A stretch of DNA of 32,167 nt, taken from NCBI GenBank assembly GCA_032718475.1, contig JAUCBJ010007218.1, positions 1-32,167 of the forward strand. The letters run 5' to 3'. Below are positions 4,376-26,299 of this stretch, piece by piece; position 1 is the stretch's first letter, and every line of letters begins with the position of its first letter. The translations under genes were made by a program, and so were the position numbers. The stretch is from Nemertoderma westbladi. Taxonomy: Eukaryota; Animalia; Xenacoelomorpha. A model generated the notes under the pieces. It saw only the letters and a list, made by a program, of their open reading frames with translations. It searched no databases and was not told the DNA's origin.

Positions 4376-4793
4376 ATATTTGTAAGCATAAAATAATAAA
4401 CAAAATAAAAATTATTTTAAATAAACCTAGATCGACCTCAGAAACAATACATATATTACTTTATCACTAGCTTTCGATATAATATGTATATCTTTTTCAA
4501 GTGTTGAAAACCAACTATTTATAAATTAAATAAATTAATAACATAAGCACAATTTAAAATTCTAGAAAGTTTGTATACCTGAACTTTAAAGGTATACAAA
4601 AAAAGGTATTAAAGGTAAAGGTTTTAAATTTTGAGAATTTTAAATTGTGCTTATATTGTTATTAATTTATTTAATTTATAAATAGTTGGTTTTCAACACT
4701 TGAAAAAGATATACATATTATATCGAAAGCTAGTGATAAAGTAATATATTAATTTTTTCTGATATTTATTTATTATTTTATGCTTACAAATAT
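4376..4793. repeat. Large palindrome (core arms 4451-4563 and 4634-4749), likely inverted Penelope-like pseudo-LTR remnants
   Basis: Near-perfect reverse-complement arms of ~113 bp plus outer arms atatttgtaagcataaaataataaa / tttattattttatgcttacaaatat; each core arm carries a hammerhead-like motif. Confidence 0.8.
4697..4735 (+). ncRNA. Minimal type I hammerhead-ribozyme-like motif (U3-A8 core variant); mirror copy on the minus strand at ~4465-4503
   Basis: CAC-TTGAAAAA-GATATA catat TATATC-GAAA-G-CTA-GTG: stem I CAC/GTG, stem II GATATA/TATATC, GAAA, palindromic AGCT in place of stem III, NUH triplet CUA. Confidence 0.55.
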
Positions 4794-6095: not shown

Positions 6096-7865
6096 TGACT
6101 GCAGGGTTGTCTGGGTTTTGGTAGTAAGATGTTACTAAGTATATTGTACTGTACAACGCTTCGTTTGTTAAGTGAGTATTGTCTCCGATTCCATGATCCA
6201 TGCATTAGGCCTAGTATCTGGTGTATGTACCATGTTCTGGCTCTGGGGTCTACCACAGTACGGACCCACCAGGCGTCACGAAATCACGAATAATAACTGC
6301 TCTATGCTCAATATGAGGTCTGGCAATTAAATAGCCAATAACATGGATGGTTGGATTTCTGATTTCGTTTCACCTTTTTAAATAAAGTTTCTTCTGTAAT
6401 ACTGTGAAGAAATGATGCTTTTAAATAATTAATATCAATATAAAAGGGATTAACAGGGAGTTTTACTGTTAATAAAATACATAAATTATTGGAAAGCAAA
6501 CACAGTAGGTTTAATAATTAATCGAAGGTTCTTATACCAAAACAATTATTCAAATTAAATGAAATATTTTCATTGAATCGCACAAACATTGCAATACCAA
6601 ATGCTAAAATGGACATAAAGGAATTTGAAAGAAACAAAATAACCACATCAACAAATCAATGCAACAATAACAAACAGAAAACTCACGCGTATAGATGTTG
6701 GTGGTTGCATTGAGTACAAGTTAAATATGAGGGATTAACTAAACAGTTAAGCAGAAGAGCGACAATGTCAGACTAAACCTGTCAATCAATGTATATTTCC
6801 TTTTACAAAGAGGGTAATATAATTAAATTAAAACACTCAAGTTACCGATGAAATAAAATTAACGTCTAAATGAGAGTGCAGGTAACACTAATACTAGGCG
6901 CACACACACACACATCTTACAATAATGTAAAATATAATGAAAACGTACGTTCACACACATACCTATACGGGTTAACTATGGATTCTGTGGACAAGCTCAC
7001 AACCAAGGGATCTGTGGACGTACTTATTTATTAAATATCTAGAGAACTATCCAATGAAAATCCTTCAAATTTTCAAATTAGCTTCCTAATAAGTAATGGG
7101 AAATGTTTGCTTTTCAAAATTTAAAATTTTTCCAATATTTCAAAAATCATTTTTTTACATTCACTGTGCGGACATTGCTTTTGGTGACGTCATAATTATG
7201 TGTGTTGTGCCTGAGTGTGTTTAGTGATGTCCACAAACCCCAACTGGGGTCAAGACACATACGAAAATTAATGTCCACATTCCACAACTAGTGTAACACA
7301 TACAGTATATGGGAAAGGAAACTGAAATGCTTTGTTTTTATGCAACTTCATGGATATGATTCTAGTAATTGGACTACTTGGTCGGGTCAGTCCATAGAGA
7401 TAATGTTCTTTTATTGTTTTTATACACTCGTGAATAATTATTGTAAAAGTTAATATTTCCCTATTAGTTACCTAAGGACTACTTGTGGTACAAGTTTCCT
7501 TAGTTTACTCAGTTACTATAACAATGGGTTATCATTTAGTCGATAGCGATAGCGCTGAACAATCCCGCCTGTAAAGCAATGCATACAAGTTAGCATGTAG
7601 CAATTTGTTTTGAAAATACTTGCAGTCTCAAGAAATATACCGTAATACTGCCATCCCATCACTGCTCAAAATATTCTTTTTTTCTGCGGGAAGACTAATT
7701 ATTTTTAGGTTGTATATAAATACAAATAGAGTGGCGCACAACAATTAATGATATAGCTCTTATCATTCAATTATATTAATTATGAATTTTATGCTTTAAA
7801 ATTATTTGGACCCTTCTACAGTACGTATTGTAAGAGCAATAGACGCTAAGAATATGTCTTATATA

Positions 7866-8397
7866 ATAAATTAACGAGAACACACCGTTCTAAATACTGT
7901 CCATTGCGCACATCTGGGGACATTAGTTTTTGTATTGTTTTTTCTGCAGGCCATACGGTATGTAGTTGCAATGGACATTAAGAAATGTTTTTATATATTG
8001 ACGAAATCACACCATTCTAAATACTGTCCCTTGCGCACATCTGGGGACATTAGTTTTTGTAGTGCTGGGAGTATTATAATAGGCCCTACGTATAGTTGCA
8101 ATGAATGTTAATAATATATAATAATATTAATAAATTAACGAGAACACACCGTTCCAAATACTGTCCCTTGCGCACATCTGGGGACATTAGTTTTTGTATT
8201 GTTTTTTCTGCAGGCCATCATACGGTATGTAGTTGCAATGGACATTAAGAAATTTTTTTATATATTGACGAAAACACACCGTTCTAAATACTGTCCCTTG
8301 CGCACATCTGGGGACATTAGTTTTTGTATTGTTTTTTCTGCAGGCCATACGGTATGTAGTTGCAATGGACATTAAGAAATGTTTTTATATATTGACG
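7866..8397. repeat. Tandem repeat, 4 copies of a ~130-bp unit
   Basis: acaccgttctaaatactgtcccttgcgcacatctggggacattagtttttgta recurs at ~7882, 8009, 8146 and 8276. Confidence 0.95.
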
Positions 8398-8541
8398 GGG
8401 GCCCCCAAGCTGGGTACTGGGTACTAGCTAAAGCTAATGAGAAGCTGATGTTTGGGAACTCACTCAGGTATCTCTGTACCGGTATTGAAAAATATGCTCA
8501 GCTACCGGTATGTCACCCTTGTCAGCCTATAAACGAATAAT

Positions 8542-8740: not shown

Positions 8741-8994
8741 TAGTATGTACCCCCTCACTTGTATGGCCAGCACGCCCATCACCCATGTCGACGGGATACT
8801 GTACGTATGTGATGTTAATAATATTGTGATTAAGAATACTACAGCGTAATTCACATTTGGTTTAATGACTTTGATACGTCTGTACGTGTCTAGTCTAGTC
8901 TCGTTTTGTGATGTCTTACTTTGTCTACGGTACATAGGCCTACTGTATTTTGTTGTTTATTACGTCCAACCTCCTCTTCCACCCGAATATCACG

Positions 8995-9591
8995 ATGGTT
9001 CCCGTCGAGCTCTACCTACGTCGCAACATAACCGCCGGATCACCGACCGACTTCATCAGGGTCGACGAGATTCCTGCCCTTCGCACCCGCTCGCAGAGGC
9101 AGAAGTTGACCGCGCTGAAGGAGGCCGTGGGGCAGCTGGGCATCCCCGTCACCTACAAGACCATCCCCGGCCACAAGGAGCGATCGCCGATGCTGAAGAT
9201 CCACGGCATCCGCGAGAAGACATCGGAGGAGAAGTTGAAGCAATCGGTGGTGGTCATCGTGGTCGGGATCCGGAGCGAGTTCCTCGCCATCGTCGACCAT
9301 CTCCAGGATCCGAGGCACCTCGAGGTGGATCTCCCCTGGGCGAAGAAGAGAGCCGTCGGATTCCTGCCAGGTTCGGACTCCGTCATCACCGTCGTCCTCC
9401 CCAAGAACATCAACGCCCCCAACGCTGCCGGAGCCATCGCCCAGGTTTTCGCCGTCGCCAAAAACACCGTCGAGTATGCCCTCAAGGTAGGCACCGTCTT
9501 CGGCGGAGAGGACTCGGAGATGGGAGAGATCGGGGTCCTGAAATCGGTGGGACGGGCCAGTCCCTTGTACGATGGGTACATGCGTGAGTAG
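8995..9591 (+). CDS. GC-rich 198-aa ORF, possibly a distant homolog of the N-terminal domain of NPEPL1-type M17 aminopeptidases
   Basis: ATG at 8995; third codon positions are strongly G/C in an AT-rich background; motifs VVVIVVG, TVVLPKNINAPNAAGA and VGRASPLY resemble NPEPL1 LLLLG, VAALPxRVSRHNSPSA and LARAFPLF (from memory). Coding status is more certain than the product. Confidence 0.55.
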   Translation: MVPVELYLRRNITAGSPTDFIRVDEIPALRTRSQRQKLTALKEAVGQLGIPVTYKTIPGHKERSPMLKIHGIREKTSEEKLKQSVVVIVVGIRSEFLAIVDHLQDPRHLEVDLPWAKKRAVGFLPGSDSVITVVLPKNINAPNAAGAIAQVFAVAKNTVEYALKVGTVFGGEDSEMGEIGVLKSVGRASPLYDGYMRE

Positions 9592-9672
9592 ACTGTAAAA
9601 GCTTTTGCGTAATTAGCCGGTTATTTTCCCGTAAAGTACTCTGTGGTTGGTTTACCAGGCATAAAAAGGCCG

Positions 9673-10909
9673 TGTAAAAGCTTTTGTGGGATAACTGATA
9701 CGTTTGCCTTTGCTGGCCAGTTCCCCCCCAGGCGCTGGAATACTCTAAAAGGGTTCTCTGACTGTATATATATTCCCCTCGCCCGCAAGGTACCTTTACA
9801 GGTGTTTTAACGGACATAAAAGTAATTCTGCTATATACGTGTTTTGGCGGACATGGTAAGGCAAAAAACCTGTAATGCACCAACTACCTTTCACAGCTTA
9901 GCCGTGATAATTCATATTACGACATCTAACAGCTGGTTGCTGACATGGAAACAGCCATTGGATGCATGGTTCTTTGTTTGGCTTGAGCCAATCAGAGCGA
10001 TTTTTCCTGTCGACGTGTAGCTTTTAGTCGATCATAAGGAGAGTGTTCAGTCTTACTGTTTTTTCTTGATACTTTGTTGTTATTGCTGTCTAAGCCAGAA
10101 ACACCGGCCTTTTGGTAAGAACTCTAGTAAACTGCTTGAATTATCGAAAGTATAAACTGTTACCTTACCTCATCTCACCTTGATACTTTACTTACTTAAT
10201 TTAATTGCATTAATCATATTGTTTGTACTGTTATTTTACCGTCAGTTATTAATTGTACCTATTTGTTGATGGAAATATTGCTATTTGGATAATACGGATA
10301 AATCACCCAATTCCCAATTTTCTTGATAACACTACAGGTTAGAGAGACCGGCTATACATAACAATTGCGATTTATATTAATGTGGTGTGTATTGAATCCA
10401 ATGTTATTTAGCAGACCCTACGTGAGTCAATTACTGCTCTCTTTATGTGTGATCAAATGTACTGACTGTCGGCAGAATAGTGTGTATGATCGTGATTGGT
10501 AACAAAGTATTTCCTAAAGAATACGCTTTATACTTTAATCATAAGCAGTATCGTTGCGTTTTAGTATAAGTCTTAGTTCTGTTTAAATAGATAAAGCGCC
10601 ACGTCCTAAAGGAACTGTTAATATTTCCCGAAAGCCAATAATATCTGTCAGAGATTAATTATTAACGATCTATCGAATAATACATTAGGTATACACTGCA
10701 ACCTTACACTGTAATAATACAATTCAAGCATCCGAATTCAGTCTCCCGGGTGTAGATCCATCGGGTGAATGATCGCGCATGGGCTGACTTCGGCTAATGT
10801 TTTGCGTATTAGCATAAATTATTGTCGTATGCTAAAGTGGTTTTAATTAACTAAAAGACATATAAATTTTGGCAGGTTAAACTGCTAAAGGTCTTCAAAA
10901 GCGCGAACA
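9673..10909 (+). repeat. 5' LTR of element A
   Basis: TGTAAAAG...GCGCGAACA; about 11 substitutions versus 15964-17200 by manual count. Confidence 0.95.
9988..10052 (+). promoter_or_regulatory. Putative LTR promoter: CCAAT box and TCAGT initiator-like site
   Basis: CCAATCAGAGCG at 9988 is conserved in LTR B (~17405); TCAGT lies ~55-60 nt downstream in both (10047 and ~17461). Confidence 0.4.
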
Positions 10910-11289
10910 GTAACAGTTTATAATATCTTATTGCAGTAGGCAATAAGGTTGCAAGTGTAGGCATTAAATACAGCTTAATACTGTTCTGTCGAACAGTAAC
11001 AGTTTATAATCTTATTGCAGTAGGCAATAAGGTTGCAAACTACCGTAGTGACCGGTAAAACTGAACCGGTACTTTGTAGGTCAGTAGGCCTAACTGTCAT
11101 CACCGGTACCGGTACTGCTGTACAAGTACATTTAGTATTATTCGATTTTGATTATTGTATACCGGTAGGCTGTTTAAGAGATTAGGGACTGTACACCCCT
11201 TGTTTCTTTTGGAGCTTACTTATTTCTGTCAGTTTTATTTCCTAGTAAGTTAATATTGAGCTGAAGACGTGTAAGTCTGCTCAGATTGT

Positions 11290-11870
11290 TCAGATAATTG
11301 TAGGCTGAGCTGCTGTCTGACTGTGGTTGGGTTTGGAGAGATTACGGCGTGTGTAGAGTTTGTCTGATAAAGTGCCGTTAGTAAGTTGGGGCAGCCATAA
11401 GCGGTAAGGTCAATCCCCTCTTAAAGAGTAAGTCGTACTACCGTGTTAGAACGCATACTAACTAACAGTTTCAGAGTCTGCATATACTGTAGTTTATCTA
11501 GGCTTGATCGTAGTCTGCCAGTGTTTTAGCCTGTGTTTGTTTGTGTGGTCTGTTCAGGTACCGTAATAGTTATTACTCAAATATTTGTAGGCTGGATTGT
11601 TGTCTAGCTATTTTTGGGTCTGAAGGGATTGCTGCGTGTGTAGAGTTGGTCTGATCAAGTGCCGTTAGTAAGTTGGGGCAGCCATAAGCGGTAAGGTCAA
11701 TCCCCTCTTAAAGAGTAAGTCGTACTACCGTGTTAGCACGCATACTAACTAACAGTTTCAGAATCTGCACATACAGTAGTTTGTTTAGGCTTAATAGTAG
11801 TCTGCCAGCGTTTGGTTTGTATTTGTTTGAGTATTCTGTACGGGTAGCGTAATATTTATTATTCAGAGTT
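11290..11870 (+). repeat. Tandem duplication of a ~287-bp module in the leader of element A
   Basis: gccgttagtaagttggggcagccataagcggtaagg... at 11374 and 11661. Confidence 0.9.
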
Positions 11871-12168
11871 TATGCGATTATTCGCAACATTCATGTCCCC
11901 AAGTTTATTCCTACAGTAATTGTGCTTGTTATACATACCGTTATAGTTAAACTAACCCCGGTACTACATCAGGGCTGCTTGGCGTAGGTAAAGACTGACG
12001 ACTTTGTGCTTCGGTCACTCCAGCAGATGCCGTGGTTCTTTTAACTGTTCAAGTATATTTAACTACTGATTATTTGTTATACCGGTACTTGTACCTAATT
12101 TAGGGTTTAGAGTACAGTGCCTTCCGAAGTAATTAGTGTAGGCAGTATATTTGTGTCACTATTTCACC

Positions 12169-15100
12169 ATGATGTATCTTACCGCAGATCGTCCACTGCC
12201 TGTTGTCCCGGACAGTTTTGAACAAATGGAAGAGTATTGCAAAACTGGAGAACGATCACCCGCGTTTCCTCTGCAGGACGTACGTCTTTGGTATTATTGT
12301 GACTCATGTCCTAGACCTAACCAGCAAACGGAAAGACATAAACATCCGCGGAGACGTTGTGCTAAACACAGTTTTACGCGTTATACTTACGGGAGTTTCG
12401 AGCGAAACCTGTTCGACGTATCCCCTGCGATCGCCCGTTTAAAACGATCGCTAAATAAACCCATGATCAGAGTTCCGGAATACTCGGTCAGACCTCCCCA
12501 TTTCCCCGTGAGACCTCAAACTCTTGATCCTAACAGTATCACAGATCCTCCCGAATTATACTCACTGTTCAAGGATTTGGTGTTACCCGAGCAGCTAATC
12601 GGTGGTGCTCCGGCGGTAGGTTCGTTAGATATTCGACCATCCTATTTAACCGGATTGGGACGCGGACATCTAACCTCGCCTTTTAATCCTTACAACCGGC
12701 CAGGATTAACGCCGATACAACCTGCCACGGAAGTCGAGGAGAGTGTCATTAGAAACGCTCTAGACGCCATCCGACAGAAAATCGGAAAGGGAACCCAGGA
12801 TTTTCTAGAGAAACGTAAATTACAGCAGCAGGTCCAATCGGTAAAAGAGCTAGCCTTGCCGCAGTTTGATAGAGAAATCCAAAACCTCGAAGAGGACATC
12901 GAGCTTGGACGTACGTATTCTCTACAGGAGTTTCTGGAAGAACGCTTACAGAAACAAGCGGAGGAGAATCAACTGGAGGAGAGGCATACGGAAATGGATG
13001 AGAGGGAAGAAGCCGCTTTAGCCCAACCCGAAACTCAGATACTCATAACCGATCTCTACTCTAAAACCGTCCGTCATCCCTCGATGGTTCCGCATTTCGG
13101 AGATAAACTTTTCGCAAAGATACAACCCCAACCGGTTGATATCAGCATAAGATCGCAAAATCTTATCGCCGACGCTCCTATGTTACAGCGTCCGCCAATC
13201 GAGGCCGCTCGAGTTGACGGTATACTCGTTGAACCTCCGGACAATCGAGCGGATCTTGTCCGTCGTATGGTACACGATGTCAACATACGCGCTAGACCTT
13301 TACAGAACTCTTTTTATGGAATTAAAGATCACCCTTATTACGTTAATCTGACTCAATATTATATGGTAAAACCAGAAGATCCGACGCATGATTTAAAGTT
13401 TCTACCACTAATAAATCCTCTGGACATTGTCGAACTCGAACAATTACAAAAACATCTGGATCAATTAGTAAAGGCAAACTCATTTCGAAAACCATATAAC
13501 GTTTCTCGAATAGAGAAGGATACAGAACCTCCTTATAATCTCGATGGATTTATTAAAACTCGATTAGTCCATTGGAATCTAGACGTATTATTCGAGGAGG
13601 AGAAAATCCAAAGATATGGAAATGTGGAGACGTATACCACTCGATATATGAAGTATAGTGATCTCCCTGACGCTAATCAATGCGCCACCTTGTGGCATCC
13701 GGTAGGGATGACCCTCGAGAACGCCACCAAAGAGTGGAATGAAACTCTTAATATCATTGAGATGTATGGCGTTGTTACTTATGATAACGAAGGTAGCGTT
13801 CCAATCGGAGAATTAGGAACTACGCGCATGATACATATACGCGGATTAGCTGGCTCCACTCACGTGTTTACGCGAGCGTGTTCCGACGTGATCGATTATT
13901 CCTTCGAAACTCTCACCGAAACGCAGAAGAATCTCCGACATGGACAATTCGAACTCGCGCAGCGTTACGTCATCGACACCGAACGCAAACCGGCCATGGG
14001 TATCGATGGATCGATGTTACCCCAACCCGTTCTCGAGATGTTATTCAACGAAAGAATTGTTAAAATCGGCTCAGCTGTTTATGGAGATCTCCAAAACGAC
14101 TTTCGGAATATGGAGAATATCCCCTATCCTTTCGTGGATACTCAGCTGATAGCGCCTTGGGCCGAAGGCCGAGGTTTCTTTCGCACCATGTATGCTAATG
14201 TGTCTAGCAACATTACAAAGGTGCAACGAACTTCCATCGGACATCTTGCCTTTCAGGAATACGGGTGGAATTTCAAAGTCGGAAATCCCATCAACTATCA
14301 ACAAGTATACGGAGACCATTATTCTCGATTATACTTTGACGGACCATTAACCGCACCTGGCGCCGTGTATAGCTTCATGAGTGTTCCACTCCGACCCTCC
14401 TTAGCTATCTACACGATCTTCGAAAACACCGCACTTTCCGGTTGGCTAGCCGATGTGTGCAGTCGTACTATACGCGCCCATCCATTAATCCTTGGGACCA
14501 AACTCGCTAAGCTAGATGAACATAATAAATTCATCCGCTTTGAATGTTTCCGACGGTTTTTAACCCCGTTTCGCAACGTGGATAGCCAATTCAAAGACCG
14601 CGCTTTGACCAAGCTCAGCTTAAGAGACTCAGCTGCGGAGAAGTTGGATAGCGCTGGATTCGCTATTTTCCGAGACATTTGTGTGATAAACCTGCACTCC
14701 TCGGTTATCCAAAGACCTCGGATCCCCACCGGTTATTCTGTCGTGGAAATTCAGACGGTAGGTCCACTTGAGGAGACGGCCATACCTACCTCAACTATAC
14801 AAGGGGAAGACGAACCCATATGTTTAGAATCGGAAGAGATTCAGCCCCCCACGGCTCGGAGTAGCGATAGTGACTATATATTGGAATGGTATCAAGGTCC
14901 ACAGTGTCTTACTGCGTATGATTATCGCCATGCCAATTATGTTTCTCGACAACGTTGTCGGCTGTGCGCATCGAGAGACCATATTACGTCTATGGACACC
15001 AACGATCTTTGTTCCTATTTCCACGAGCAACCGTCGATGGAAATCTATTGTGCATATTGTCGGCTTAATAATTTGCACATTTTTGCCGTCTGCCCCCAAT

Positions 15101-15885
15101 TTATGACTCAATGCCATCATTGTCAATTAAAAGGACACGCCAGCTTTGATTGTCCCTTCAACCATGATTTAGAGAGCGTAGATGAGATGATTGTACTACG
15201 TTATATCAGAGCTTGGGAAGCGAACGCTGATTTACATTGTGATTCACGCCATCGCTATTATCCCGGACGCGCCTACGAAGGAGTTTATGCGTTCCATCCA
15301 TATTTGTTTGCCTCCGTCGAGCAAAAATCGCGCCTATCAAGTTATGAACTATTGAAGCGCGTTGGAGAATGTATTTCAACCAAATATGTACGTAAATTTC
15401 TCAGGAGCATTAATCCGAGTGACATCCAGTCTTACAACTTAATAAACTTTATCCGTCAAGACCCTGCCTATGGAGACTTATTCGTCAACTCACACCCTGA
15501 GTTACAAGAAGTATATCGACGGCCTTACGAGTATCGAGCCCGCGAACGCGAGTTAGAAAGAACCATTAAACCAAGGAAGTTTCTAACTGCCTATGGTCCA
15601 CCCACAGCCCTCGTTCAGACCACTCGTAAAGGACCCGTAAGAGCGGCTGTCTTGAAACGAGCTCTCAAAGCCGTTAGACCCCTCTCCCCGGACGTTGATG
15701 TCAATCAACCCGGTACTTCGACCGGCGGATATACCGATCGCAACCCCATACCTTCTGATGCAATCATATTGCACCCTTCACCCAGGAGTTATAGCCCTCC
15801 TCGTAAAGTGGCTCGCCCCAAAGAGAAAAGGACTCTTGCTAGCTTTAAAAAACTGCGTAAACGCCGTCCGCGCAAGAAAGACTAA
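12169..15885 (+). CDS. 1238-aa protein: acidic coiled-coil-like region, DEDDy-like (WRN/EXD/Mut-7 family) 3'-5' exonuclease domain, three CCHC zinc knuckles, basic C-terminus
   Basis: First ATG at 12169 (caccATG). ExoI-like VVTYDNEG (13771), ExoII-like LPQPVLEMLFNERIVKIGSAVYGD (14017-14088), FVDT, SIGHLA, ExoIII-like PLRPSLAIYTIFE; CRLC..H..C, CAYCx5Hx4C and CHHCQLKGHASFDC (14956-15153); ends KKLRKRRPRKKD. Confidence 0.85.
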   Translation: MMYLTADRPLPVVPDSFEQMEEYCKTGERSPAFPLQDVRLWYYCDSCPRPNQQTERHKHPRRRCAKHSFTRYTYGSFERNLFDVSPAIARLKRSLNKPMIRVPEYSVRPPHFPVRPQTLDPNSITDPPELYSLFKDLVLPEQLIGGAPAVGSLDIRPSYLTGLGRGHLTSPFNPYNRPGLTPIQPATEVEESVIRNALDAIRQKIGKGTQDFLEKRKLQQQVQSVKELALPQFDREIQNLEEDIELGRTYSLQEFLEERLQKQAEENQLEERHTEMDEREEAALAQPETQILITDLYSKTVRHPSMVPHFGDKLFAKIQPQPVDISIRSQNLIADAPMLQRPPIEAARVDGILVEPPDNRADLVRRMVHDVNIRARPLQNSFYGIKDHPYYVNLTQYYMVKPEDPTHDLKFLPLINPLDIVELEQLQKHLDQLVKANSFRKPYNVSRIEKDTEPPYNLDGFIKTRLVHWNLDVLFEEEKIQRYGNVETYTTRYMKYSDLPDANQCATLWHPVGMTLENATKEWNETLNIIEMYGVVTYDNEGSVPIGELGTTRMIHIRGLAGSTHVFTRACSDVIDYSFETLTETQKNLRHGQFELAQRYVIDTERKPAMGIDGSMLPQPVLEMLFNERIVKIGSAVYGDLQNDFRNMENIPYPFVDTQLIAPWAEGRGFFRTMYANVSSNITKVQRTSIGHLAFQEYGWNFKVGNPINYQQVYGDHYSRLYFDGPLTAPGAVYSFMSVPLRPSLAIYTIFENTALSGWLADVCSRTIRAHPLILGTKLAKLDEHNKFIRFECFRRFLTPFRNVDSQFKDRALTKLSLRDSAAEKLDSAGFAIFRDICVINLHSSVIQRPRIPTGYSVVEIQTVGPLEETAIPTSTIQGEDEPICLESEEIQPPTARSSDSDYILEWYQGPQCLTAYDYRHANYVSRQRCRLCASRDHITSMDTNDLCSYFHEQPSMEIYCAYCRLNNLHIFAVCPQFMTQCHHCQLKGHASFDCPFNHDLESVDEMIVLRYIRAWEANADLHCDSRHRYYPGRAYEGVYAFHPYLFASVEQKSRLSSYELLKRVGECISTKYVRKFLRSINPSDIQSYNLINFIRQDPAYGDLFVNSHPELQEVYRRPYEYRARERELERTIKPRKFLTAYGPPTALVQTTRKGPVRAAVLKRALKAVRPLSPDVDVNQPGTSTGGYTDRNPIPSDAIILHPSPRSYSPPRKVARPKEKRTLASFKKLRKRRPRKKD

Positions 15886-15953
15886 CTGTTTAGAGTATTT
15901 TTATATTTTAGAAACTGTGATTTTGTATATTTTATAGACTTAAATCCCATTTT

Positions 15954-15963
15954 CTGGGAGCGG
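15954..15963 (+). other. Polypurine-tract-like plus-strand primer site of element A
   Basis: ctgggagcgg abutting the TGT start of the 3' LTR. Confidence 0.65.
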
Positions 15964-17200
15964 TGTAAAAGCTTTTGTGGGATAACTGATACGTTTGCCT
16001 TTGCTGGCCAGTTCCCCCCCAGGCGCTGGAATACTCTAAAAAGGTTTTCTAACTGTATATATATTCCCCTCGCCCGCAAGGTACCTTTACAGGTGTTTTA
16101 ACGGACATAAAAATAATTCTGTTATATACGTGTTTTAGTGGACATGGTAAGGCAAAAAACCTGCAATGCACCAACTACCTTTCACAGCTTAGCCGTGATA
16201 ATTCATATTACGACATCTAACAGCTGGTTGCTGACATGGAAACAGCCATTGGACGCACGGTTCTTTGTTTGGCTTGAGCCAATCAGAGCGATTTTTCCTG
16301 TCGACGTGTAGCTTTTAGTCGATCATAAGGAGAGTGTTCAGTCTTACTGTTTTTTCTTGATACTTTGTTGTTATTGCTGTCTAAGCCAGAAACACCGGCC
16401 TTTTGGGAAGAACTCTAGTAAACTGCTTGAATTATCGAAAGTATAAACTGTTACCTTACCTCATCTCACCTTGATACTTTACTTACTTAATTTAATTGCA
16501 TTAATCATATTGTTTGTACTGTTATTTTACCGTCAGTTATTAATTGTACCTATTTGTTGATGGAAATATTGCTATTTGGATAATACGGATAAATCACCCA
16601 ATTCCCAATTTTCTTGATAACACTACAGGTTAGAGAGACCGGCTATACATAACAATTGCGATTTATATTAATGTGGTGTGTATTGAATCCAATGTTATTT
16701 AGCAGACCCTACGTGAGTCAATTACTGCTCTCTTTATGTGTGATCAAATGTACTGACTGTCGGCAGAATAGTGTGTATGATCGTGATTGGTAACAAAGTA
16801 TTTCCTAAAGAATACGCTTTATACTTTAATCATAAGCAGTATCGTTGCGTTTTAGTATAAGTCTTAGTTCTGTTTAAATAGATAAAGCGCCACGTCCTAA
16901 AGGAACTGTTAATATTTCCCGAAAGCCAATAATATCTGTCAGAGATTAATTATTAACGATCTATCGAATAATACATTAGGTATACACTGCAACCTTACAC
17001 TGTAATAATACAATTCAAGCATCCGAATTCAGTCTCCCGGGTGTAGATCCATCGGGTGAATGATCGCGCATGGGCTGACTTCGGCTAATGTTTTGCGTAT
17101 TAGCATAAATTATTGTCGTATGCTAAAGTGGTTTTAATTAACTAAAAGACATATAAATTTTGGCAGGTTAAACTGCTAAAGGTCTTCAAAAGCGCGAACA
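15964..17200 (+). repeat. 3' LTR of element A
   Basis: Direct repeat of 9673-10909 at a constant 6291-bp offset, followed by TSD GGCCG. Confidence 0.95.
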
Positions 17201-18545
17201 GGCCGTGTCCTTACTGTACTGGTGTTTTAGAGGACATAAAAGCCATTTCTTCTGTATTTGTACTTTAGAGGACATAATCCGCAATTTCGTGACGCAATAA
17301 GCTAGATATTCTTGAAAACAGTGTCGCTACCATGACGACGGCTAACAGCTGATATTGCCACATCGAACATTTCTTTGTTCTTTGTTCTCTCTTTGTACGG
17401 TCGACCAATCAGAGCGTTTTTTGTCTCTGTGTTGGAAGTTGGATACAGAAACTCAGGAATTCAGTTATATGTTTTTGCCCAGAGCCTAAGAACACCGGCT
17501 TTTGGCACCTCCGTGTTTCAGTCTTTAGCTTAACATTAGTAGGCTTAATTATAGAACGTATATCTGTTATCTAAACATATCATGCATATCTTACTTAACA
17601 TTACTGCTTTTGCTGTCGGTTATTCATTATATTTGTTGATGGAAGATTATATTTGGAATACTGATCAATAGTCAGACACCCCAATCTTCTTGATATACTA
17701 AAGGTTAGAGAGACCGGTTACAGATAAACGATTGCGACTTAAGTTAAGTGGTGTGAAGTGAATCTAATGCTATTTTATAGGCCCTACATGTATTGTCTGT
17801 TATTCTCTTTGTATGTGACTAAAATTAGTGAAGGTCGGCAGATTGGTGTGCAGCATTGTGCAGCATTGTGTATGATTGTGACTGATAACAAAGCATCTCC
17901 TAAAGAATGCGCCATATACATGAATCTATAGCCATCTCATTGCGTCTGGTTTAAGTCATAACTCTGTTTACATATTTAGAGCCCCACGTCCTAAAGGAAC
18001 TGTTAATATTTCCCGAAAGTGAATAATATTTGTCAGAGATTATATATTACGATCAGTCGAATAATACAGTAGGCTTACACCATCAATCATTAAGCTTCCG
18101 AATTCAGTCTCCCGGGTATATCCAGCGGGTGAATGATTGCGCATAGACTGGCTTCGGCTAATGTAGTGTATCAAATACTCGTCATAGGCTAAAGACTATC
18201 TATCATCTAAAAGACATCCTAATTTGGCAGGTTAAACTGTCAAAGGTCTTAAAAGCGCAAACAATAACAGATATTGCTTCTGGATTGCGGTGTAAGCAAT
18301 CTAGTCGAAAGTACCGGTCGACCGGTAATCTGTAGGCCTGACTGCCTGATCATCCGGACCGGTACCTACAGCAGTACAGGTACAGCAGTATTATTCGATT
18401 TTTATAATTATATACTGGTGGGCCTTAATAATTAATCAGGGACGGCCGCCCTGGTTTTTTATTGAGATTTTACTTGTTTCTGTCAAGTTTTATTTATTTG
18501 TAGGTTAATATTGAGCAGAAGGCGTGTAAGCTTGCTCCGATTGTA

Positions 18546-19125
18546 CAGATAATTTGTAGGCTGGACTGTTGTCTAACCGTTGTTAAGTCTGAACGGATTG
18601 CAGTGTGTGTAGAGCATCTGTCCGATAAAGTGCTAAGTTAGGAAAGTAGGGGCTTCAAGTGCTGTGAGGTAAACCCCCTGTGAAAGAATAAGTCGTACTA
18701 CTGGGTTAGAACGCATACTAACTAATCATCTCGGAGTCTGCATATACTGTAGTTTATTTAGGCTTGATAGTAGTCTGCCAGCGTTTGGTCTGTACTTTGT
18801 TTGTGTAGTCTGTACGGGTAGCGTATAATTTTATTTAGATAATTTGTAGGCTGGATAGTTGTCTGGCTGTTGTTGGGTTTGAGGAAATTTCGGTATGTGT
18901 AGAGCATCTGTCCGAAAAGGTGCTAGTTGGGAACGTAGGGGCTTCAAGTGCTGTGAGGTAAACCCCCTGTGAAAGAATAAGTCGTACTACTGGGTTAGAA
19001 CGCATACTAAGTAATCATTTCGGAGTCTGCATATACCGTAGTTTGTTTAGGCTTGATAGTAGTCTGTCAGTATTTGGTCTGCATTTTGTTTGAGTAGTTG
19101 TACGCGTAGCGTAATATTTATTATT
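18546..19125 (+). repeat. Tandem duplication of the homologous ~289-bp module in the leader of element B
   Basis: gtaggggcttcaagtgctgtgaggtaaaccccctgtgaaagaataagtcg at ~18646 and ~18935. Confidence 0.9.
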
Positions 19126-20296
19126 CAGAGTTTATGCTATTATTCGCAACATTCATTCCCCAAGTTTATTCCTACAGTAATTGTGTTTGTTATACATACC
19201 GTTATAGTTAAACTAACCCCGGTACTACATCAGGGCTGCTCGGCGTAGGTAAAGACTGGAGATTTTGTGCTTTAGTCACTCCGGCAGATACCGTGGTTCT
19301 TTTAGCTGTTCAAGTATTTTTAACTACTAATTATTTGTTGTACAAGTACTTGTACCTAATTTAGGGTTTAGTGTACAGTGCTTTCCGAAAGCAATTAGTG
19401 TGTAGGCAGTATATTTGTGTTGTAAAGTGGTTAATAGGCACGTTGGTTCTGGTAGAACGCGGTAATTAATCTCTAGGTAGGAACACTCCGTGATACATAA
19501 CGTAGTACCTATAGCGATACGGTTATAGGTCGTCAGGCGGTGGTATTTTCCTATCTGGACAACGCAGTATATTTACTACTACTTATTATTTTCAAATACC
19601 GTAGTAACCTGTCCGTTGTAATAACCAGATATTCTAACCCTTTGTTAGGCTGGTTAGTAGACTTCTTGTAAAATTACCCTAAAAATTTGTATTTGAGTAT
19701 TTGTAATTAAATTTTTTGTGTTTATTTAGAGATTGTAATCTCAACCCGAATTGTACGTAATTCGTAGTATTAAGTAACTTAGGTAAATTAGAATTATTTG
19801 TTTTAGTGTCTAACAAGTAGCACTCCACTGAGAGCGCACAGCTTATGTGTAGTGACTCCCCCAGAAATAATAACATTTATTTCAAACATTGACAAAACCC
19901 ATTAACCCTATCCATACCGGGGGGGGGGGACTTTTGGAGACGCACTTTATTTGATAGCTTGGTTCAAAGCCAAACCACATTTATTGCAAGTGAAATTCCG
20001 TTACATTTCCTAAAATTTATTATTCTTTATCTTAAAACAAAAATTAATTTTCATATTATTATTTATGACCATGAAAATGACTCGTAAACTGACCTGTCTC
20101 TGAAACTGTCATATTATTGCTGAACTATTATAGGCGGGAAATTTAAAATTCAATCAATTTAATATAAATTTAAAATCAATTTAAACATAATTATAGTATA
20201 TAAATATTATATTTCAGCATTAGTGTGTGGCATATTTAGATAGAGGAATAAATTTTGTATCTAAAACTTTTTACTTTAAAGTAATATCATCACACC

Positions 20297-23200
20297 CACC
20301 GTTTGAGTGCGTATGCTGAATTTCTAAAGAAATCCCTTGTAGACAGACGTGCAGTCGTGTGGGACAAGCGGTTATGCTATAATTGCCTCAGACCAGGACA
20401 CCAACGGCGAACCTGTTACTCCGACATAAAGTGTGCAAAGTGTGGCGCGAAACATCACATCTTGTTACACAGTGAGTTCGAACGAGACAAACAGAGTCAG
20501 GTAAGTGAGCCCGAACTACATGTCCAATTCAGTGATGTAAATGACACTGATCAGGAGCCTGAGATGGAAGGATTCTATACTGACGAATTCTCCGACGCCA
20601 ACGAATCCTGTTATCTAATCAATACCGCAGTGTATCGAGCACTTACTTATGAAAAGGACACCAACAATGAGTTTCCCCCAACTACTTTTGCCAAACAACC
20701 ATCTTGGAAAGCTCCAACTTCCAACGTAGGAATCAGAGAATTTCCTGTAGTGCAGGTAAGAGTTCACGGTCCTAACCACAGTTACATAGTGAACGCACTC
20801 CTTGACTCCGGCAGCACAGGAACATTCATCGATCAAGAACTAGCCGAAGATATCTTTGCTGGACAACCCAAATTCCGGACTAAATTGAATATGTCAGGAA
20901 TTATGCAGGTTTGGAAATCTACCCTAACTGCAGATTACTATGTAGGTGTGTTGTCCACCCCCCAGGATAAATTAGGAGCACAAGGTGTAAGGTCGGTAAA
21001 AATGGTGGCTATAAAGAACTTCGCTACTACTCAGGCAGACCTTTATAATTGGGACGAGGATGAGAGTATCCAACATCTTAAGATACCTCGATTCCAGACA
21101 GATTATCCTGGAATGCAAATACTCATCGGCCAAAACGCGCATGAGGCGCTCGAAACATTGGAGAAACGGCCTGCTCAACCACAGCCACTGCAAACCTATG
21201 CGGTAAGAACTAGAGTAGGTTGGTACTTTACTGGCCCTTCCCGCAGGACTCTCGAAGAGAGAATACCACAAGAACGAATATACCAAGTAAACGATTGGGA
21301 AGTAGAGAGCAGTGAGGTGGACGAACTAACTGAGGAAACACCATACTCTTCAGATAATGACGACATCTACCAACTCTTCGATGAAGAGAACACAATAGAC
21401 CTACTCACAGAAAACCAAACTTGGAAAAATCAAGTGAACCTATGTCAACTGATTCGCCCATCGGAACCCATCGCTTACAATGACGAACTAAACGATGAGA
21501 TAGAGCGCTACAACGCTAGAACTCGGGACGAACTAGCCGTACAATTCTTTACTCAAGAACTGGTAGAGCCCAATTCATATGATAAGGCCCTATCGATAGA
21601 AGAAGAAAGAGCCAAGCAAATCCAGGAAACAACTACACGTTTTTTAAAGGACCAAGGTAGATATGAAATCGGCCTACCATTTTGAAAACGAGAACCTAGA
21701 TTTATAAATAACAGACCCTTGGCAGAGAAAAGAATCGCTCAATTACATCGACGCCTTACGGCTAATGCTTCAGCTAAAGAAATGTACCAAACTCAGCTGA
21801 AGAAATTTATAACAAAGGGATACGTGGAGCGAGTACCGGAAGGAACACCAGTGACTGAGAGAACGTATTACTTAACACATCATTACGTTCCCAAACCCGG
21901 TAAACCCCACGAAGTACGAGTCGTATTCAATGGCTCCGCCCTATATATGGGCCAATCCCTCAATTCCGAGTTGTTACCAGGACCCAACTTACTCCAATCT
22001 TTGTTGGGAATACTTTTAAGATTAAGACAATATTCCATCGCGTTCGCCTCCGATATAGAAGGAATGTTCTTACAAGTCAAGGCGCTGGATAGAGATAGAG
22101 ACAGCCTGAGATTTCTGTGGTGGCCTGAAGGAGACCTCAATCAGAAACTGGTAGAGTACTGGATGACCATCCAGGCTTTTGGAATCATATCAAGCCCTTC
22201 CAACGCCTGCTCCGTGGTGCGAACCACTGCGAATGACAACCGAGACTCCTTCTCAAAAGAAGTGATAGACAACATAAAACGTAATATATACATGGACGAC
22301 AATTTAAGGTCCCTTCCATCAGTAGAAGAAGCCATAGATGTCGCGAAAGGAACGGTAGAGTGTTTAAAAAGAGGTGGATTTCGACTGACGAAATTCACTA
22401 GCAACTCCCGTGAGTTTCTGGAAGCCATACCGGTAGAAGACCGAGGAACGAAAGACCTAGACTTAATAAAGGACGATCTTCCTGAAACCAAGACGCTTGG
22501 CTTGAAGTGGGACACTGAAAGAGATATCCTGTTCTTTCAGCTAAAACAGCGAGATAATCCAGTTCGGACCAAACGGATTTGTTTAAGTATCCTGAGCACT
22601 TATTTCGACCCATTGGGATTTATAAGCCCAGTTATATTGATTGCTCGGAGTTTAGTACAACAAATGTGGCTTGAAAACCACTCATGGGACGATCCGCTTA
22701 AGGGAGAATTGTTAAAGAAATGGATGAAATGGGAAGATTCTCTACCCGCCATCGAGAACTTTATAATTTCCCGTGCATATTTTGGCCATGTTCTTCCTAC
22801 GTATTCCTATCAACTCCATGTGTTTGGAGATGCCAGCGACATGGGAATAGGTATAGTAGCATATCTGCGAGTCGAAACCCCGGATGGAATCAAAGTCGCC
22901 TTGGTTACCTCTAAGGCATTGATTAACAACAAGTTAAAGGTTCCTCGAGCGGAGTTAAAGGCGGCTTTATACGCTACAGCCATCGGCCGGAACGTAACGG
23001 AACAAATCGACTATCCACTGGAGAAAACGGTTTATTGGACCGACGCTTTACTCGTGTTGGAGTATCTAACCAATGAAGTCTGTCAGTTCAGCGTTTTTGT
23101 TACTAACAGGGTAGCTATTATTCTTAGTCGCACAAATATAGATCAATGGAGACATTGCCCTGGTACGATCAATCCAGCCGATATCGCCTCCAGGGGAGCA

Positions 23201-25675
23201 ACTCCACAGGAACTGATAGATACTCCAGATTGGTTGGGTGGACCCGACTTCCTGAGCAAGGAAGAGGATGAATGGCCTCCTCACCTTACTACGGCGGAGA
23301 TTAGACAAGCCAAGGGAGCGGAGACAGTCAAACCTAAAACCCGGGCGAGTAAATCGAAGTTATTTAAACCGACTATCGATCTATCTGTATTACATACTTC
23401 CGGGAATGATGCTTCGGATCTACAATCCCTCAACACAAATAAGTCTGTTGTGGAAATTAGAGATAGAGATTGGAAATCTGGAATACCAGACGTCTCGCAA
23501 GGAATCTCACCCATGCTGCAGAGAGCAATGCATCATTACAGTTCCTGGAATCGGCTCTGTAAAGCCGTCACATATTTAAGACGATGTTTTCATCATCACT
23601 ACTCCAGGACGAAGACCACTAGTGATACCGCTCCATTGACATCTGCACAAGTTCATGTTATTAAAAATTTACCCAAATATAAGACCTCTGACCGTTTTCT
23701 AAAGGAGAAAATTAGTCACCAGGAGCATGAAGAAACCAATAAGCAGATACTGAGACTCCTGCAATGCTATGAGGATTCCGAAAAGTATTTCCTGTTGTTG
23801 AGAAATCCGCAGATGCGCTTAAGGGATCGATTCTCGAGCACAATGATAGATGGGTTAATACGTGTTGGAGGAAGACTCACCAATGCGCCCTTATCCTTTG
23901 ACACCAAATTCCCCATACTTATTAGAAATCTTGAAGTACAAATCAAGATGATTGTAGATGTTCACAGTAAACTTTATCATGCTGGTAGAGAACGAATTCT
24001 TAGCGAAATTCGAACTCGCTATTATTTTGATAAACCCCGTAGAGCTCTGAACCAAGTTCTTAGGAACTGCATACCCTGTAGGAAAGCATTCAGTAGGCCT
24101 TTAACACAGCGAGAGGCAGAATTACCTAGGGAACGAGTAAGCTTCTATGAACCACCTTTTACTAATACTGGTGTAGATTTGTTTGGCCCTATTGAAGTAT
24201 ATCGTGCTAGGACTATAGTCAAGAGATGGTGTGTCATCTTCGTGTGCATGACTTGTAGAGCCATCCATCTCGATATGGTGAACGATCTATCTACCAACAG
24301 CTTCGTCTTAAGTTTACGACGACAGATCGCTCGCTTCGGGACGAGTAATACCATGAGATCGGATAAGGGAACGAACTTCATTGGTGCCAACAACGAAATA
24401 CAGGCTTACGTGAAGGACTGGAACCAAAGACAGGTGGACGACCAGCTAAGGATAACAGCGTCTAGCTGGACCTTCAACGCCGCCGACGCCCCTTGGTGGG
24501 GAGGAAGTTGGGAGAGATTAATTCGAAGTGTCAAAACCGCATTTCTCTTTATAGTGCCATGCCGCGCGTATCTCACCGACGAACTTTTGCGGACATTAAT
24601 GGAGGAAATCGCTGCCTATCTCAACGAGAGACCGCTTATGCCAGTCTCATCGAGTCCCGATTCCCTGGAAGCGCTAACACCCGCGCACTTCCTACTGAAG
24701 AAACCTGTAGCCATGCTCCCACGATCGGAGATTGCCGACGGAGACGAATACTGCCGTCGAACTTGGCAACTTATGCAGTTGCTATCCCGTCGTTTCGCTG
24801 ACCATTTCGAGAAACATTATCTGCCCACGCTACAACTTCGAACTAAGTGGTTTGCGCAGCAAGAAAACGTCAGCGCCGGAGATATGGTGCTTATTGTAGA
24901 TCCAGACCTCCCACGTAAACGGTGGCAGACAGGTCGTATCATCGAGACTCACATCTCGGATGATGGTTTAGTGCGCTCAGTAGAACTTGTCGTCATGCGG
25001 CGTAACTTCAAGAAGCCAGGCATAATCTTTGAGACGCACAACTCAATCGCCCAGTTGGTCGTTTATGTTTACTGGAAAGAGACAGAGAACTCTCTGGAAA
25101 CTATGGAAGGCAAGACACTCTTCCCACGACCACCTCCCTAATTCCTCAAACATCTAGGGACTCCCCAACGTGATACGTCTGGAGTGGGTGTATGACTATA
25201 TTGTTTTATCTATTTTATTATATTTTTATATGCGAACTTTATTATGTACTTTATTATAATCGTTTTTATTCAATTTTATTTAGTAGAATGTTATTTTAGT
25301 GATTATTTAGTAGATTAGTGCAATATATTAGTGTTTATTACGTACGTAATTACTTATAATATACATTTAGTGCGACGGCGAGAAAATAATTATTTTTCTC
25401 TTTCCTTACTGTCCGTATCATATTATAAATACGTGACTACAGTAAGATGAAATGTCCGTACTTCTTAAAGTACAATAAAGCCACTACTATATTCAAGTAT
25501 TATTAGTAGGCAGAGTATTAGGAATGCAAAGTTCAGATCCTCGTGTCTCGGCTAAACCAAGCTCTGGGTAGACCTTGGAAACGACTTGCCTCTTCACACT
25601 GACATTGCTTCGTGCGATATTGCTCTTCTACCTTATATTAAATAATACATATAGTAGCGTGATGTCCATATAACA
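20297..25675 (+). mobile_element. BEL/Pao LTR retrotransposon, 5'-truncated (3' LTR starts at 25189; its end is uncertain)
   Basis: Gag knuckles-PR-RT-RH-IN order; ctggagtggg then TGTATGAC at 25189; no matching 5' LTR in the window. Confidence 0.9.
20303..25141 (+). pseudogene. BEL/Pao gag-pol polyprotein, disrupted (N-terminal truncation, in-frame TGA at 21683-21685, frameshift near 25040)
   Basis: CYNCLRPGHQRRTC / CAKCGAKHHILLH; protease ALLDSGS; RT YMDD (22289-22300); RNase H FGDAS, PRAEL, NPADIASRG; integrase DLFGP, SDKGTNF, GGSWERLIRSVK; terminal RPVGRLCLLE lies in another frame. Confidence 0.93.
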
Positions 25676-26006: not shown

Positions 26007-26283
26007 TGTGCCGACGTTTATAGACTCCTTTCCTACTTATAGACTTAAAGACTCCTTAACTACAGTAGAGATATATAATGGACCTTGATTATATGCTTTA
26101 TGGCCTTATTGTACACATACCGTACTTACCTACCGGTACAGTACCAAATGCCTTCTTACCTGTCATGCCTGTCAGTCTGTATGCCGACCTACCTGCCGAC
26201 CTATTATATTTCAGTACTTATTATATTATACAGTCCACAAGTTATGCCTACCTTTTATCTTACCAACCTTTGGCGTTGCCACA
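26007..26283 (+). repeat. 5' LTR (~277 bp, TGTG..CACA); the end is inferred
   Basis: Matches 31915-32167; ends gccACA just before the PBS-like motif. Confidence 0.85.
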
Positions 26284-26285
26284 CT

Positions 26286-26299
26286 CTTCGAACCGGATT
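26286..26299 (+). other. Partial tRNA-Tyr-type primer-binding site
   Basis: CTTCGAACCGGATT versus the complement of the tRNA-Tyr 3' end TGGTCCTTCGAGCCGGATT. Confidence 0.6.

Follow-up and report, generated by a model that had tools for sequence, protein, structure and literature searches.

A young gag- and pol-less LTR retroelement linked to BEL/Pao in Nemertoderma westbladi, with a likely nuclease as its one conserved gene

How an LTR retroelement that lacks gag and pol is copied and integrated, and what its only gene contributes, are the questions raised by a locus in Nemertoderma westbladi (Xenacoelomorpha). The window analyzed was the whole of a 32,167-nt stretch (contig JAUCBJ010007218.1 of assembly GCA_032718475.1), in which the element occupies positions 9673 to 17200 (Table 1). 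The answer that we favor, at a probability of about 65%, is that the element is linked to BEL/Pao, is mobilized in trans, is likely self-primed, and keeps one conserved gene, likely for a nuclease, that would serve to counter silencing. The architectural part of this reading is quite probable, and a nuclear anti-silencing role of the nuclease cargo is proposed tentatively.

Table 1. Positions of the features of the element and of the BEL/Pao neighbor in the window
Feature	Position	Strand	Remarks
Neighbor's 5' LTR, first part	9594..9672	+	Terminal 14 nt identical to the element's
Left target-site duplication copy	9668..9672	+	5 bp, GGCCG
Element's 5' LTR	9673..10909	+	1,237 bp, TGT...ACA
LTR-internal 13-mer, predicted self-primer	10151..10163	+	Complementary to the primer-site position; 3'-LTR copy at 16442-16454
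5' leader	10910..12168	+	Contains a 287-bp tandem duplication
Primer-binding-site position	10910..10922	+	Follows the LTR directly and lacks a TGG start; second copy at 10996-11008
Sole ORF of the element	12169..15885	+	1,238 aa; under purifying selection across related copies
Likely DEDDy (RNase D/WRN-type) 3'-5' exonuclease domain	13768..14436	+	aa about 534-756
Three CCHC zinc knuckles	14956..15153	+	aa 930-995; zf-CCHC_3 E 0.0027, below cut-off
Basic C-terminus	15844..15882	+	Resembles a nuclear localization signal
Purine-rich tract, short	15956..15963	+	Adjoins the 3' LTR
Element's 3' LTR	15964..17200	+	1,237 bp, TGT...ACA
Right target-site duplication copy	17201..17205	+	GGCCG
Neighbor's 5' LTR, remainder	17206..18263	+	Resembles the element's LTR (73% over about 700 nt)
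Neighbor's predicted self-primer	17560..17570	+	Complementary to 18264-18274; homologous to 10151..10163
Neighbor's primer site and shared leader	18264..19421	+	
Neighbor's gag C-terminus and protease	20285..21685	+	Two knuckles; frame terminated by a stop
Neighbor's RT, RNase H, and integrase frame	21686..25141	+	BEL/Pao

The element is a young LTR retroelement. The LTR pair and the 5-bp target-site duplication given in the preliminary description were both recovered, and the two LTRs differ by 11 substitutions, 10 of which are transitions, with no indel (K2P divergence, 0.009). Contigs of runs X1 and X4 connect position 9666 directly to 17200, omitting 7,533 nt (the element plus one duplication copy), which shows that an empty site exists. 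The TGT...ACA ends, the 5-bp duplication, and this empty site together indicate that an integrase acted, although the element encodes none. The PPT-like tract noted earlier does abut the 3' LTR and is purine rich but measures only 8 nt, 7 of them purines.

The element's stop-free frame extends from 12142 to 15885, with the first ATG at 12169, and thus forms one uninterrupted 3.7-kb ORF as described; when the internal region was shuffled 200 times, no frame exceeded 202 aa. The reported lack of replication enzymes also held. No D[ST]G or Y.DD motif was found in the ORF, no Pfam family scored above its cut-off in the element, no Pao-type protease, RT, RNase H, or integrase was detected there (the neighbor has the BEL/Pao set), and a tblastn search with the ORF did not match either of the window's two BEL/Pao gag-pol elements. 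The suggestion that the protein replaces Gag found no support, given that DUF1759 (BEL-type Gag) is absent from the ORF, that a sequence-level blastp comparison with the BEL Gags of the window gave a best E value of 0.11, and that the sequence searches revealed no Gag or capsid similarity. An envelope role was ruled out by the lack of a membrane segment (maximum hydropathy, 1.33). A phmmer search of 1.84 billion representatives yielded a single match, the distant homologue P0001 (E value, 5e-6), and no close cellular homologue. Word-based searches of proteins close to the ORF in length or shorter returned no match and, with a two-row alignment, only P0001 itself. Matches in the PDB (ferritin at an E value of 0.4) and PHROGs were at noise level, and neither scans of viral contigs nor a first metagenome scan found a locus.

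The surroundings of the element point to a source for the missing enzymes. It lies nested in a related BEL/Pao element that has pol, within the 5' LTR; the pol frame of this relative matches Peptidase_A17 (E value, 4e-36), DUF5641 (2e-19), and Integrase_H2C2 (2e-7). The leaders of the two are 82% alike over 1.1 kb, up to position 12156, with 93% over 233 nt near the end, and the likeness stops 12 nt before the ATG. This agrees with the earlier view of a nonautonomous, BEL/Pao-linked element; the preliminary description mentioned neither the partner element nor the self-priming signature treated below. Because it shares these control regions, the element likely borrows the enzymes of the neighbor's family, which is the likely helper and by which the element is presumably mobilized in trans. 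The neighboring copy itself is to be regarded as a relative of the helper rather than an established one, since it is broken (the gag N-terminus is missing and a stop lies ahead of RT) and its LTR is just 73% alike. Proteins of the helper family would copy and integrate the element, and a loss of gag-pol would have put an accessory gene of the lineage behind the 5' leader, at a junction at 12156 to 12159. Derivation of this junction from a spliced RNA was unsupported, no clear donor or acceptor sites being visible by eye.

Complementarity within the two elements suggests that both likely prime reverse transcription with their own RNA and not with a host tRNA. The TGG start of a tRNA primer site is absent after the LTR of either. 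Instead, pairing with an LTR-internal segment begins at the first base past the LTR and is perfect in the element (13/13) and in the neighbor (11/11), which was attained by 1 and 23 of 20,000 shuffles, respectively. The primer pair co-varies: letters on both sides of the pairing differ between the two elements, and their own pairings (-13.9 and -10.1 kcal/mol) are stronger than the cross-pairings (-5.7 and -6.5 kcal/mol). At most 5 nt of such complementarity occur in a third BEL/Pao element of the window, and there are no tRNA genes within the window. About 750 nt loop out between the 13-mer and the primer site, and beyond the 13-mer the RNA shows no pairing to the end of the LTR. The predicted primer duplex scored near 1.0 in two of six folds, 0.33 in one, and 0 in three, and appeared only if the folded stretch stopped just behind the primer site. 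Transcription would begin near 10151, and the 5' end of the RNA would fold onto 10910-10922 and then be cleaved to yield a primer, as happens in Tf1. In the accessible portions of PMC4600332 and PMC6317226, the primer site of self-priming elements (Tf1/Tj1, Tf1/sushi, Tcn1, and TAR) is likewise complementary to part of the LTR interior, and a tRNA site is absent. Those elements belong to Ty3/gypsy or Ty1/copia, whereas the partner here is BEL/Pao, so that the Ty3/gypsy RT lineage of Tf1/sushi is not found, and the loop is about 750 nt. No publication on self-priming BEL/Pao elements surfaced in a literature search.

The ORF likely holds a DEDDy-type 3'-5' exonuclease domain, and its product is likely an RNA 3'-trimming nuclease, judging by motifs and profile matches. 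All of the nuclease motifs listed in the preliminary description were located (D539-x-E541, LPQP at 617, VKIG at 631, D640, and PL-x6-Y748-xxx-E752), which gives D539, E541, D640, Y748, and E752 as candidate catalytic residues. For ExoI, D539/E541 were matched to D-V-E of P0001 in a low-scoring local alignment, and MAFFT placed the motif elsewhere. For ExoII, D640 lies in an LP...KIG...D context and is invariant across the ORF, P0001, and L001, an apparently fungal WRN-like gene from a metagenome locus scan that was used as a motif reference only; the RNase D match (TIGR01388; E value, 8e-4) covers model positions 60 to 122. For ExoIII, Y748-xxx-E752 has a YxxxE counterpart in P0001 and is unaligned to the motif of L001. 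The canonical last residue is D, and the E found in its place means that the enzyme may be inactive. The language model of the ESM Atlas gave top scores of 0.93, with DNA_pol_A_exo1 on 28 to 38% of members in 24 of 30 matches, and hhalign gave 92% to a fungal WRN/EXD2-like domain, all nuclease matches being weak and under curated cut-offs. AlphaFold models were too poor for judging the fold, both for aa 478-864 alone (pLDDT, 29.6; too poor for a fold search) and for the domain of P0001 paired with that of the window as a second row (pLDDT, 34.6), for which Foldseek and VIA-align returned no meaningful match.

The three CCHC knuckles reported earlier begin at C930, C961, and C982, the first with a long spacing (CX2CX4HX9C). 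P0001, a cluster of 1 from a 9,449-nt contig, has the exonuclease and three knuckles in identical order and lacks the long N-terminal part of the ORF; its architecture, together with the matches above, upholds by sequence the earlier assignment to DEDDy-type nucleases. Cellular RNase D-type nucleases are linked to CCHC fingers, as in trypanosome RND and in Rrp6 with its Air/ZCCHC7 partners. Such proteins resemble the ORF product in coupling an exonuclease to knuckles for RNA 3'-end work and differ in being encoded by host genes; the sole link, a feature score of 0.86 between P0001 and a Euglenozoa cluster of RNase D-type and CCHC proteins, is a lead only.

Purifying selection acts on the ORF among related copies, as expected of the maintained cargo proposed earlier. 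Among the best-supported 40 of 1,008 variants, which come from short contigs that are not phaseable to pol-less copies, 27 of 38 were synonymous (31% expected; p = 4e-7), the rough dN/dS was 0.18, and 1 of 38 created a stop codon if read alone. Eight of the nine in-ORF indels among those listed fell into frame-restoring pairs; contigs with in-ORF deletions occur. In the anti-silencing role that we tentatively assign to the protein, a D-E-D-Y-E two-metal exonuclease would be steered to RNA by the three knuckles and would act in the nucleus, protecting RNA of the family against small-RNA or surveillance pathways. A basic C-terminus, which we take to resemble a nuclear localization signal, and the lack of a membrane segment are in keeping with a nuclear site.

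DEDDy nucleases are already known as cargo of LTR elements: the Juno/Vesta retrotransposons of bdelloid rotifers carry one as ORF3 (Rodriguez, Kenefick, and Arkhipova 2017, PMC5408684), an RNase D/WRN-type gene with largely kept catalytic residues and a function likewise untested there. None of the bdelloid ORFs came up in the word-based and phmmer protein searches. The bdelloid ORF3, compared here by description, follows gag and pol and has the motif DEED, and the main text of PMC5408684 does not describe a triple knuckle with it, whereas the present ORF stands alone behind a 5' leader of a BEL/Pao-linked element, reads D-E-D-E (D-E-D-Y-E with the tyrosine), and fuses three CCHC knuckles within 1,238 aa. 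The preliminary description had named a match to an already described family of LTR accessory ORFs as a ground for refutation; this ground applies in part, because such ORFs with DEDDy domains are indeed published. The element is thus a variant of published DEDDy cargo that is BEL/Pao-linked, gag- and pol-less, knuckle-fused, and likely self-primed.

The same precedent lends weight to an alternative that we regard as quite possible, though short of probable, namely, that the ORF is a regular third ORF of full-length elements and is selected there, the pol-less element being a short-lived deletion derivative that has not yet decayed. Published cases include a DEDDy ORF3 located past pol and a nonautonomous family that keeps ORF3 (TelKA2n; PMC5408684), and the LTR divergence of <1% would fit a recent derivative. 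Three contigs of run X5 align from 12159 on, with about 150 nt of other sequence replacing the shared leader, so the ORF is also found behind another upstream region, but this may be the leader of a sister family. Past the neighbor's pol, 866 nt contain no second ORF, although a nested insertion and the end of the window conceal the neighbor's 3' end. The LTR and the primer pair have diverged in parallel from those of the neighbor, in keeping with a separate family of long standing. Such a family could be a satellite with a divided genome, trading its exonuclease-knuckle protein for the enzymes of a self-priming BEL/Pao partner while the nuclease finishes the self-primer or destroys small RNAs, a scenario that we consider rather unlikely.

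Less probable still is a nuclease that assists replication, either by trimming a 3' flap to the 13-bp duplex and so finishing the self-primer or by trimming the 3' end of the genomic RNA. Processing of the element RNA's 3' end was proposed for such ORFs by Rodriguez et al. (PMC5408684), and self-priming and a 3'-5' nuclease coincide here in one element. With the RNA past the 13-mer unpaired with the LTR end, a 3' end has to be generated at that point, and a pol-less element would benefit in cis. The basic C-terminus points instead to the nucleus. We also know of no exonuclease in Tf1-type elements, which self-prime nonetheless.

An obligate two-segment retroelement, in which the partner has no working Gag or lacks another essential function that the 1,238-aa protein supplies, seems improbable. 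The gag N-terminus is missing in the neighbor copy, the two have all cis regions in common as far as 12 nt ahead of the ATG, and thousands of variant contigs lie on both (contig depth is not copy number). However, the neighbor's two BEL-type Gag knuckles are in frame with its protease, as in a damaged ordinary gag-pol; the ORF resembles neither the Gags of the window nor DUF1759; and P0001 combines nuclease and knuckles without the long N-terminal part. That this copy alone captured a host gene neutrally is largely refuted: EXD1/WRN-like host genes are present in animals (such clusters are listed for P0001), but run X1 alone has 17,881 contigs on the 3.9-kb stretch, 1,920 of them <90% alike (contig number is not copy number), and both the synonymous excess among the best-supported 40 of 1,008 variants and the fact that 1.84 billion representatives included no close homologue of cellular origin speak against it.

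The purpose of DEDDy nucleases on LTR elements has been a standing question since 2017. The present element, presumably mobilized in trans, has such a likely nuclease as its only gene, under purifying selection, together with co-varying signs of self-priming and a partner family that can be seen around it, so that the replication-helper and counter-silencing ideas can be told apart by simple tests. Nuclease cargo and tRNA-free priming, neither of which our literature search found in print for BEL/Pao, would thereby reach that group. If selection holds within pol-less copies, this would be a rare nonautonomous element that pays back its helper. TelKA2n (PMC5408684) and, in the accessible part of PMC6431247, LARDs are likewise LTR-bounded derivatives without pol that are moved in trans, as is presumed here; TelKA2n also retains its accessory ORF. 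The present element differs from what is described there in that no gag remnant was found and its nuclease cargo carries evidence of purifying selection among related copies. For BEL/Pao (Belpaoviridae), the extra genes named in the available portions of PMC3118150 and PMC13524379 are env-like fusogens, and the word exonuclease is absent from both main texts, whereas the extra gene here is a likely nuclease. The element's LTRs lie at the top of the range of 0.2 to 1.2 kb given in these sources, and its partner has the BEL/Pao domain set.

An LTR element that lacks pol (9673-17200) is a real, young, and maintained insertion. Contigs from sequencing runs X1 (n = 3) and X4 (n = 1) fuse 9666 to 17200 and omit 7,533 nt, which equals the element and a single target duplication; an empty target site therefore exists. 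The LTR pair shows 11 substitutions, 10 of them transitions, and no indel; the K2P distance is 0.009. The position and LTR length given in the preliminary description were confirmed, as was its 5-bp target site duplication, for which GGCCG was found at both flanks. The purine tract noted there is present but is only 8 nt long. The single ORF proved to be uninterrupted and free of protease and RT motifs, as originally read: searches of its 1,238 aa (longest frame among 200 shuffles, 202 aa) for D[ST]G and Y.DD found none, a Pfam search of the element returned no family over the cutoff, and tblastn matched the ORF region to neither of the two gag-pol elements found in the window.

Coordinates of the pol-less element, its BEL/Pao neighbor, and the third element
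Feature	Position	Remarks
Pol-less element, 5' LTR	9673-10909	1,237 bp; TGT start, ACA end
Pol-less element, ORF	12142-15885 (open frame)	ATG at 12169; 1,238 aa
Pol-less element, 3' LTR	15964-17200	1,237 bp; TGT start, ACA end
Pol-less element, second LTR-leader pairing	10672-10683 with 11135-11146	
Neighbor, second LTR-leader pairing	18057-18067 with 18388-18398	
Neighbor, gag C-terminus and protease	20285-21685	
Neighbor, RT-RNase H-integrase frame	21686-25141	BEL/Pao markers: Peptidase_A17 (E = 4e-36), DUF5641 (E = 2e-19)
Third BEL/Pao element	26007-32167	Nested in the neighbor's 3' region
Third BEL/Pao element, gag-pol	26454-30371	Contains DUF1759
Third BEL/Pao element, integrase part	30251-31894	Different frame from gag-pol

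The insertion lies 79 nt into the 5' LTR of a pol-bearing BEL/Pao relative (the neighbor), which starts at 9594 with 14 nt identical to the pol-less element, resumes at 17206, and has its LTR end at 18263. Between the two elements, LTR similarity is 73% across about 700 nt, and leader similarity is 82% across 1.1 kb; both leaders hold the same ~288-bp tandem duplication, one 233-nt stretch reaches 93%, and the likeness ends at 12156, 12 nt upstream of the ATG. This resemblance upholds the BEL/Pao affiliation first proposed, whereas borrowing in trans is something that we infer. The neighbor's family is the likely source of enzymes; the copy itself, which lacks the gag N-terminus and has a stop between protease and RT, is only a candidate helper. 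Because the third BEL/Pao element (253 nt identical between its two LTRs) breaks into the neighbor at 26007, the neighbor's 3' end falls outside the window. An AT-rich stretch with a poly-G run (19880-20285) occupies the expected place of the gag N-terminus. Contigs of several runs skip 21363-23135 and 23328-25038 within the neighbor's pol, and internally deleted derivatives of its family thus seem common.

No TGG-type primer site follows the LTR of either element. The pairing described next is absent from the preliminary description. The first 13 nt after the LTR of the pol-less element (10910-10922) exactly complement LTR positions 10151-10163, and 18264-18274 of the neighbor is complementary to 17560-17570; shuffled LTRs equaled such pairing in 1/20,000 and 23/20,000 cases, respectively. 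The LTR pairing sites are homologous, and in this comparison of just two elements letters change jointly on both sides, crossed pairs being much weaker (-5.7 and -6.5 kcal/mol) than own pairs (-13.9 and -10.1 kcal/mol). When 1,200 leader positions per element were scanned, pairings of at least 11 nt occurred at 8 positions (pol-less element) and 2 positions (neighbor). These belonged to the primer site, to the copy of it at 10996, and to another conserved pairing (11135/18388). The third BEL/Pao element, at 16 candidate LTR ends, showed at most 5 nt of complementarity and no LTR-complementary primer site. A conserved CCAAT box 155 to 163 nt upstream of the LTR pairing site in both elements fits a transcription start near that site. 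Counting against self-priming, the second conserved pairing implies that the leader has other long-range helices. The primer duplex was predicted near 1.0 in two of six folds, at 0.33 in one, and at 0 in three, and only if the folded stretch ended just past the primer site. Helices also flank the primer site. In this copy, the primer site and the hairpin that follows it occur twice (10904-10954 and 10990-11038), and contigs without 96 nt of this region occur in three runs.

Residues of about 534 to 756 of the ORF probably form a DEDDy exonuclease domain, on evidence that is consistent and individually weak. The NCBIfam RNase D model TIGR01388 matched at an E value of 8e-4, far under the model cutoff. 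In the ESM Atlas (best scores, 0.93), 24 of 30 matches fell in the DNA_pol_A_exo1 set, with that domain on 28 to 38% of members. A phmmer search of 1.84 billion representatives matched a single protein, P0001 (E = 5e-6; 29% over 171 aa), which has an exonuclease followed by three CCHC knuckles in the same order. The three knuckles originally described are present, and their score against P0001 was exceeded in 0/500 shuffles. With hhalign, the two-row profile aligned at 92% over 90 columns to the WRN/EXD2-like domain of L001, an apparently fungal locus; the PDB matches of that domain are WRN and EXD2. (L001 6533-10884 is transposon-like, with a canonical domain of this type.) The candidate catalytic residues are D539, E541, D640, Y748, and E752, the last being E rather than D, as in P0001. 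The nuclease assignment of the preliminary description gains sequence matches but no structural backing: predictions had pLDDT values of 29.6 and 34.6, too low, and fold searches on the second of these poor models returned nothing. The suggested Gag substitute was not supported, as comparison with the BEL Gags of the window reached E = 0.11 at best. The protein has no membrane segment, and its C-terminus is basic, resembling a nuclear signal. All features assigned to the protein lie beyond its first 500 residues.

Four runs from four studies were aligned to 12060-15990. X1 alone yielded 17,881 contigs, 1,920 of them below 90% alike, and the ORF family is therefore diverse and multicopy. Among the best-supported 40 of 1,008 sites, minus 2 in the leader, 27 of 38 variants were synonymous, 10 changed a residue, and 1, considered by itself, gave a stop; the mutation spectrum would lead to 31% synonymous changes (p = 4e-7; rough dN/dS, 0.18). 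With an 11-site cluster left out, the share was 20/27 (p = 5e-6); in the neighbor's pol frame, 13 of the 18 listed variants were synonymous. Of 16 indels, the 12 listed comprised 9 in the ORF, 8 of these in frame-restoring pairs, and 3 outside it, unpaired. Counting against selection, contigs with in-ORF deletions were also present (15/26 among joints listed). The ORF is under selection among related copies, which in these short contigs may be copies with or without pol; a maintained cargo, as proposed, is supported, and a neutral single-copy capture is very unlikely. Three contigs of run X5 match from 12159 on and carry other sequence for about 150 nt upstream. The ORF is thus also found downstream of a different region, where it may be a third gene following pol. 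These contigs would fit a pol-less form that arose recently by deletion from a three-gene element instead of being a stable family, an alternative to which we give less than even odds. Contig depth at 15756-15990, which covers the final 130 nt of the ORF as well as the 3' leader, far exceeds that of the rest of the ORF. From there, contigs extend into LTRs of other types, and more families may have this end in common.

DEDDy exonuclease ORFs on LTR elements are already published: bdelloid Juno and Vesta carry one (ORF3; DEED motif; function untested) behind pol, and one non-autonomous family retains its ORF3 (PMC5408684; the case is cited in PMC6338049). Cargo between LTRs moved in trans is the subject of a review (PMC6431247), and self-priming is known in the Tf1/sushi, Tcn1, and TAR lineages (PMC4600332, PMC6317226, PMC6934838, and PMC3601003). 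The available text of two BEL/Pao papers (PMC3118150 and PMC13524379) names only env-like extra genes and lacks the word exonuclease. Searches of openly accessible main texts gave no description of DEDDy with BEL, non-autonomous DEDD-knuckle elements, or self-priming Pao. The pol-less element shares a probable nuclease cargo with Juno and Vesta, but as its sole ORF rather than an ORF3 behind pol, and its predicted priming style with Tf1/sushi, but with a BEL/Pao partner. It is a member of neither group and likely behaves like a non-autonomous BEL/Pao derivative with bdelloid-style cargo and Tf1-style priming.

Anatomy, shared cis regions, co-varying pairing, and selection are established here, and the following working is proposed. 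The RNA would start near 10151 and be packaged by the partner family's Gag via the common leader. Its 5' end would fold back on the primer site and be cut into a primer, as in Tf1 (PMC4600332). Borrowed RT would copy the RNA, borrowed integrase would insert it, and translation from 12169 would give a knuckle-guided 3'-5' nuclease. Because of the basic tail and kinship with EXD1/Mut-7-type factors, we tentatively prefer nuclear counter-silencing or RNA protection as its role (probability, about 0.35). Trimming of the self-primer ranks next and seems unlikely; an inactive RNA-binding derivative or other roles take up the remainder.

Elsewhere in the window, an intact, intronless ribosomal protein L18 frame (2638-3225, minus strand; Pfam E = 2e-95) is a gene or retrocopy, and a GC-rich 217-aa frame with no Pfam family (8938-9591, plus strand) ends just upstream of the neighbor's LTR. 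The stretches 76-1142, 4438-4762, and 7825-8458 hold two elements with inverted repeats and one array whose repeats measure about 130 bp.
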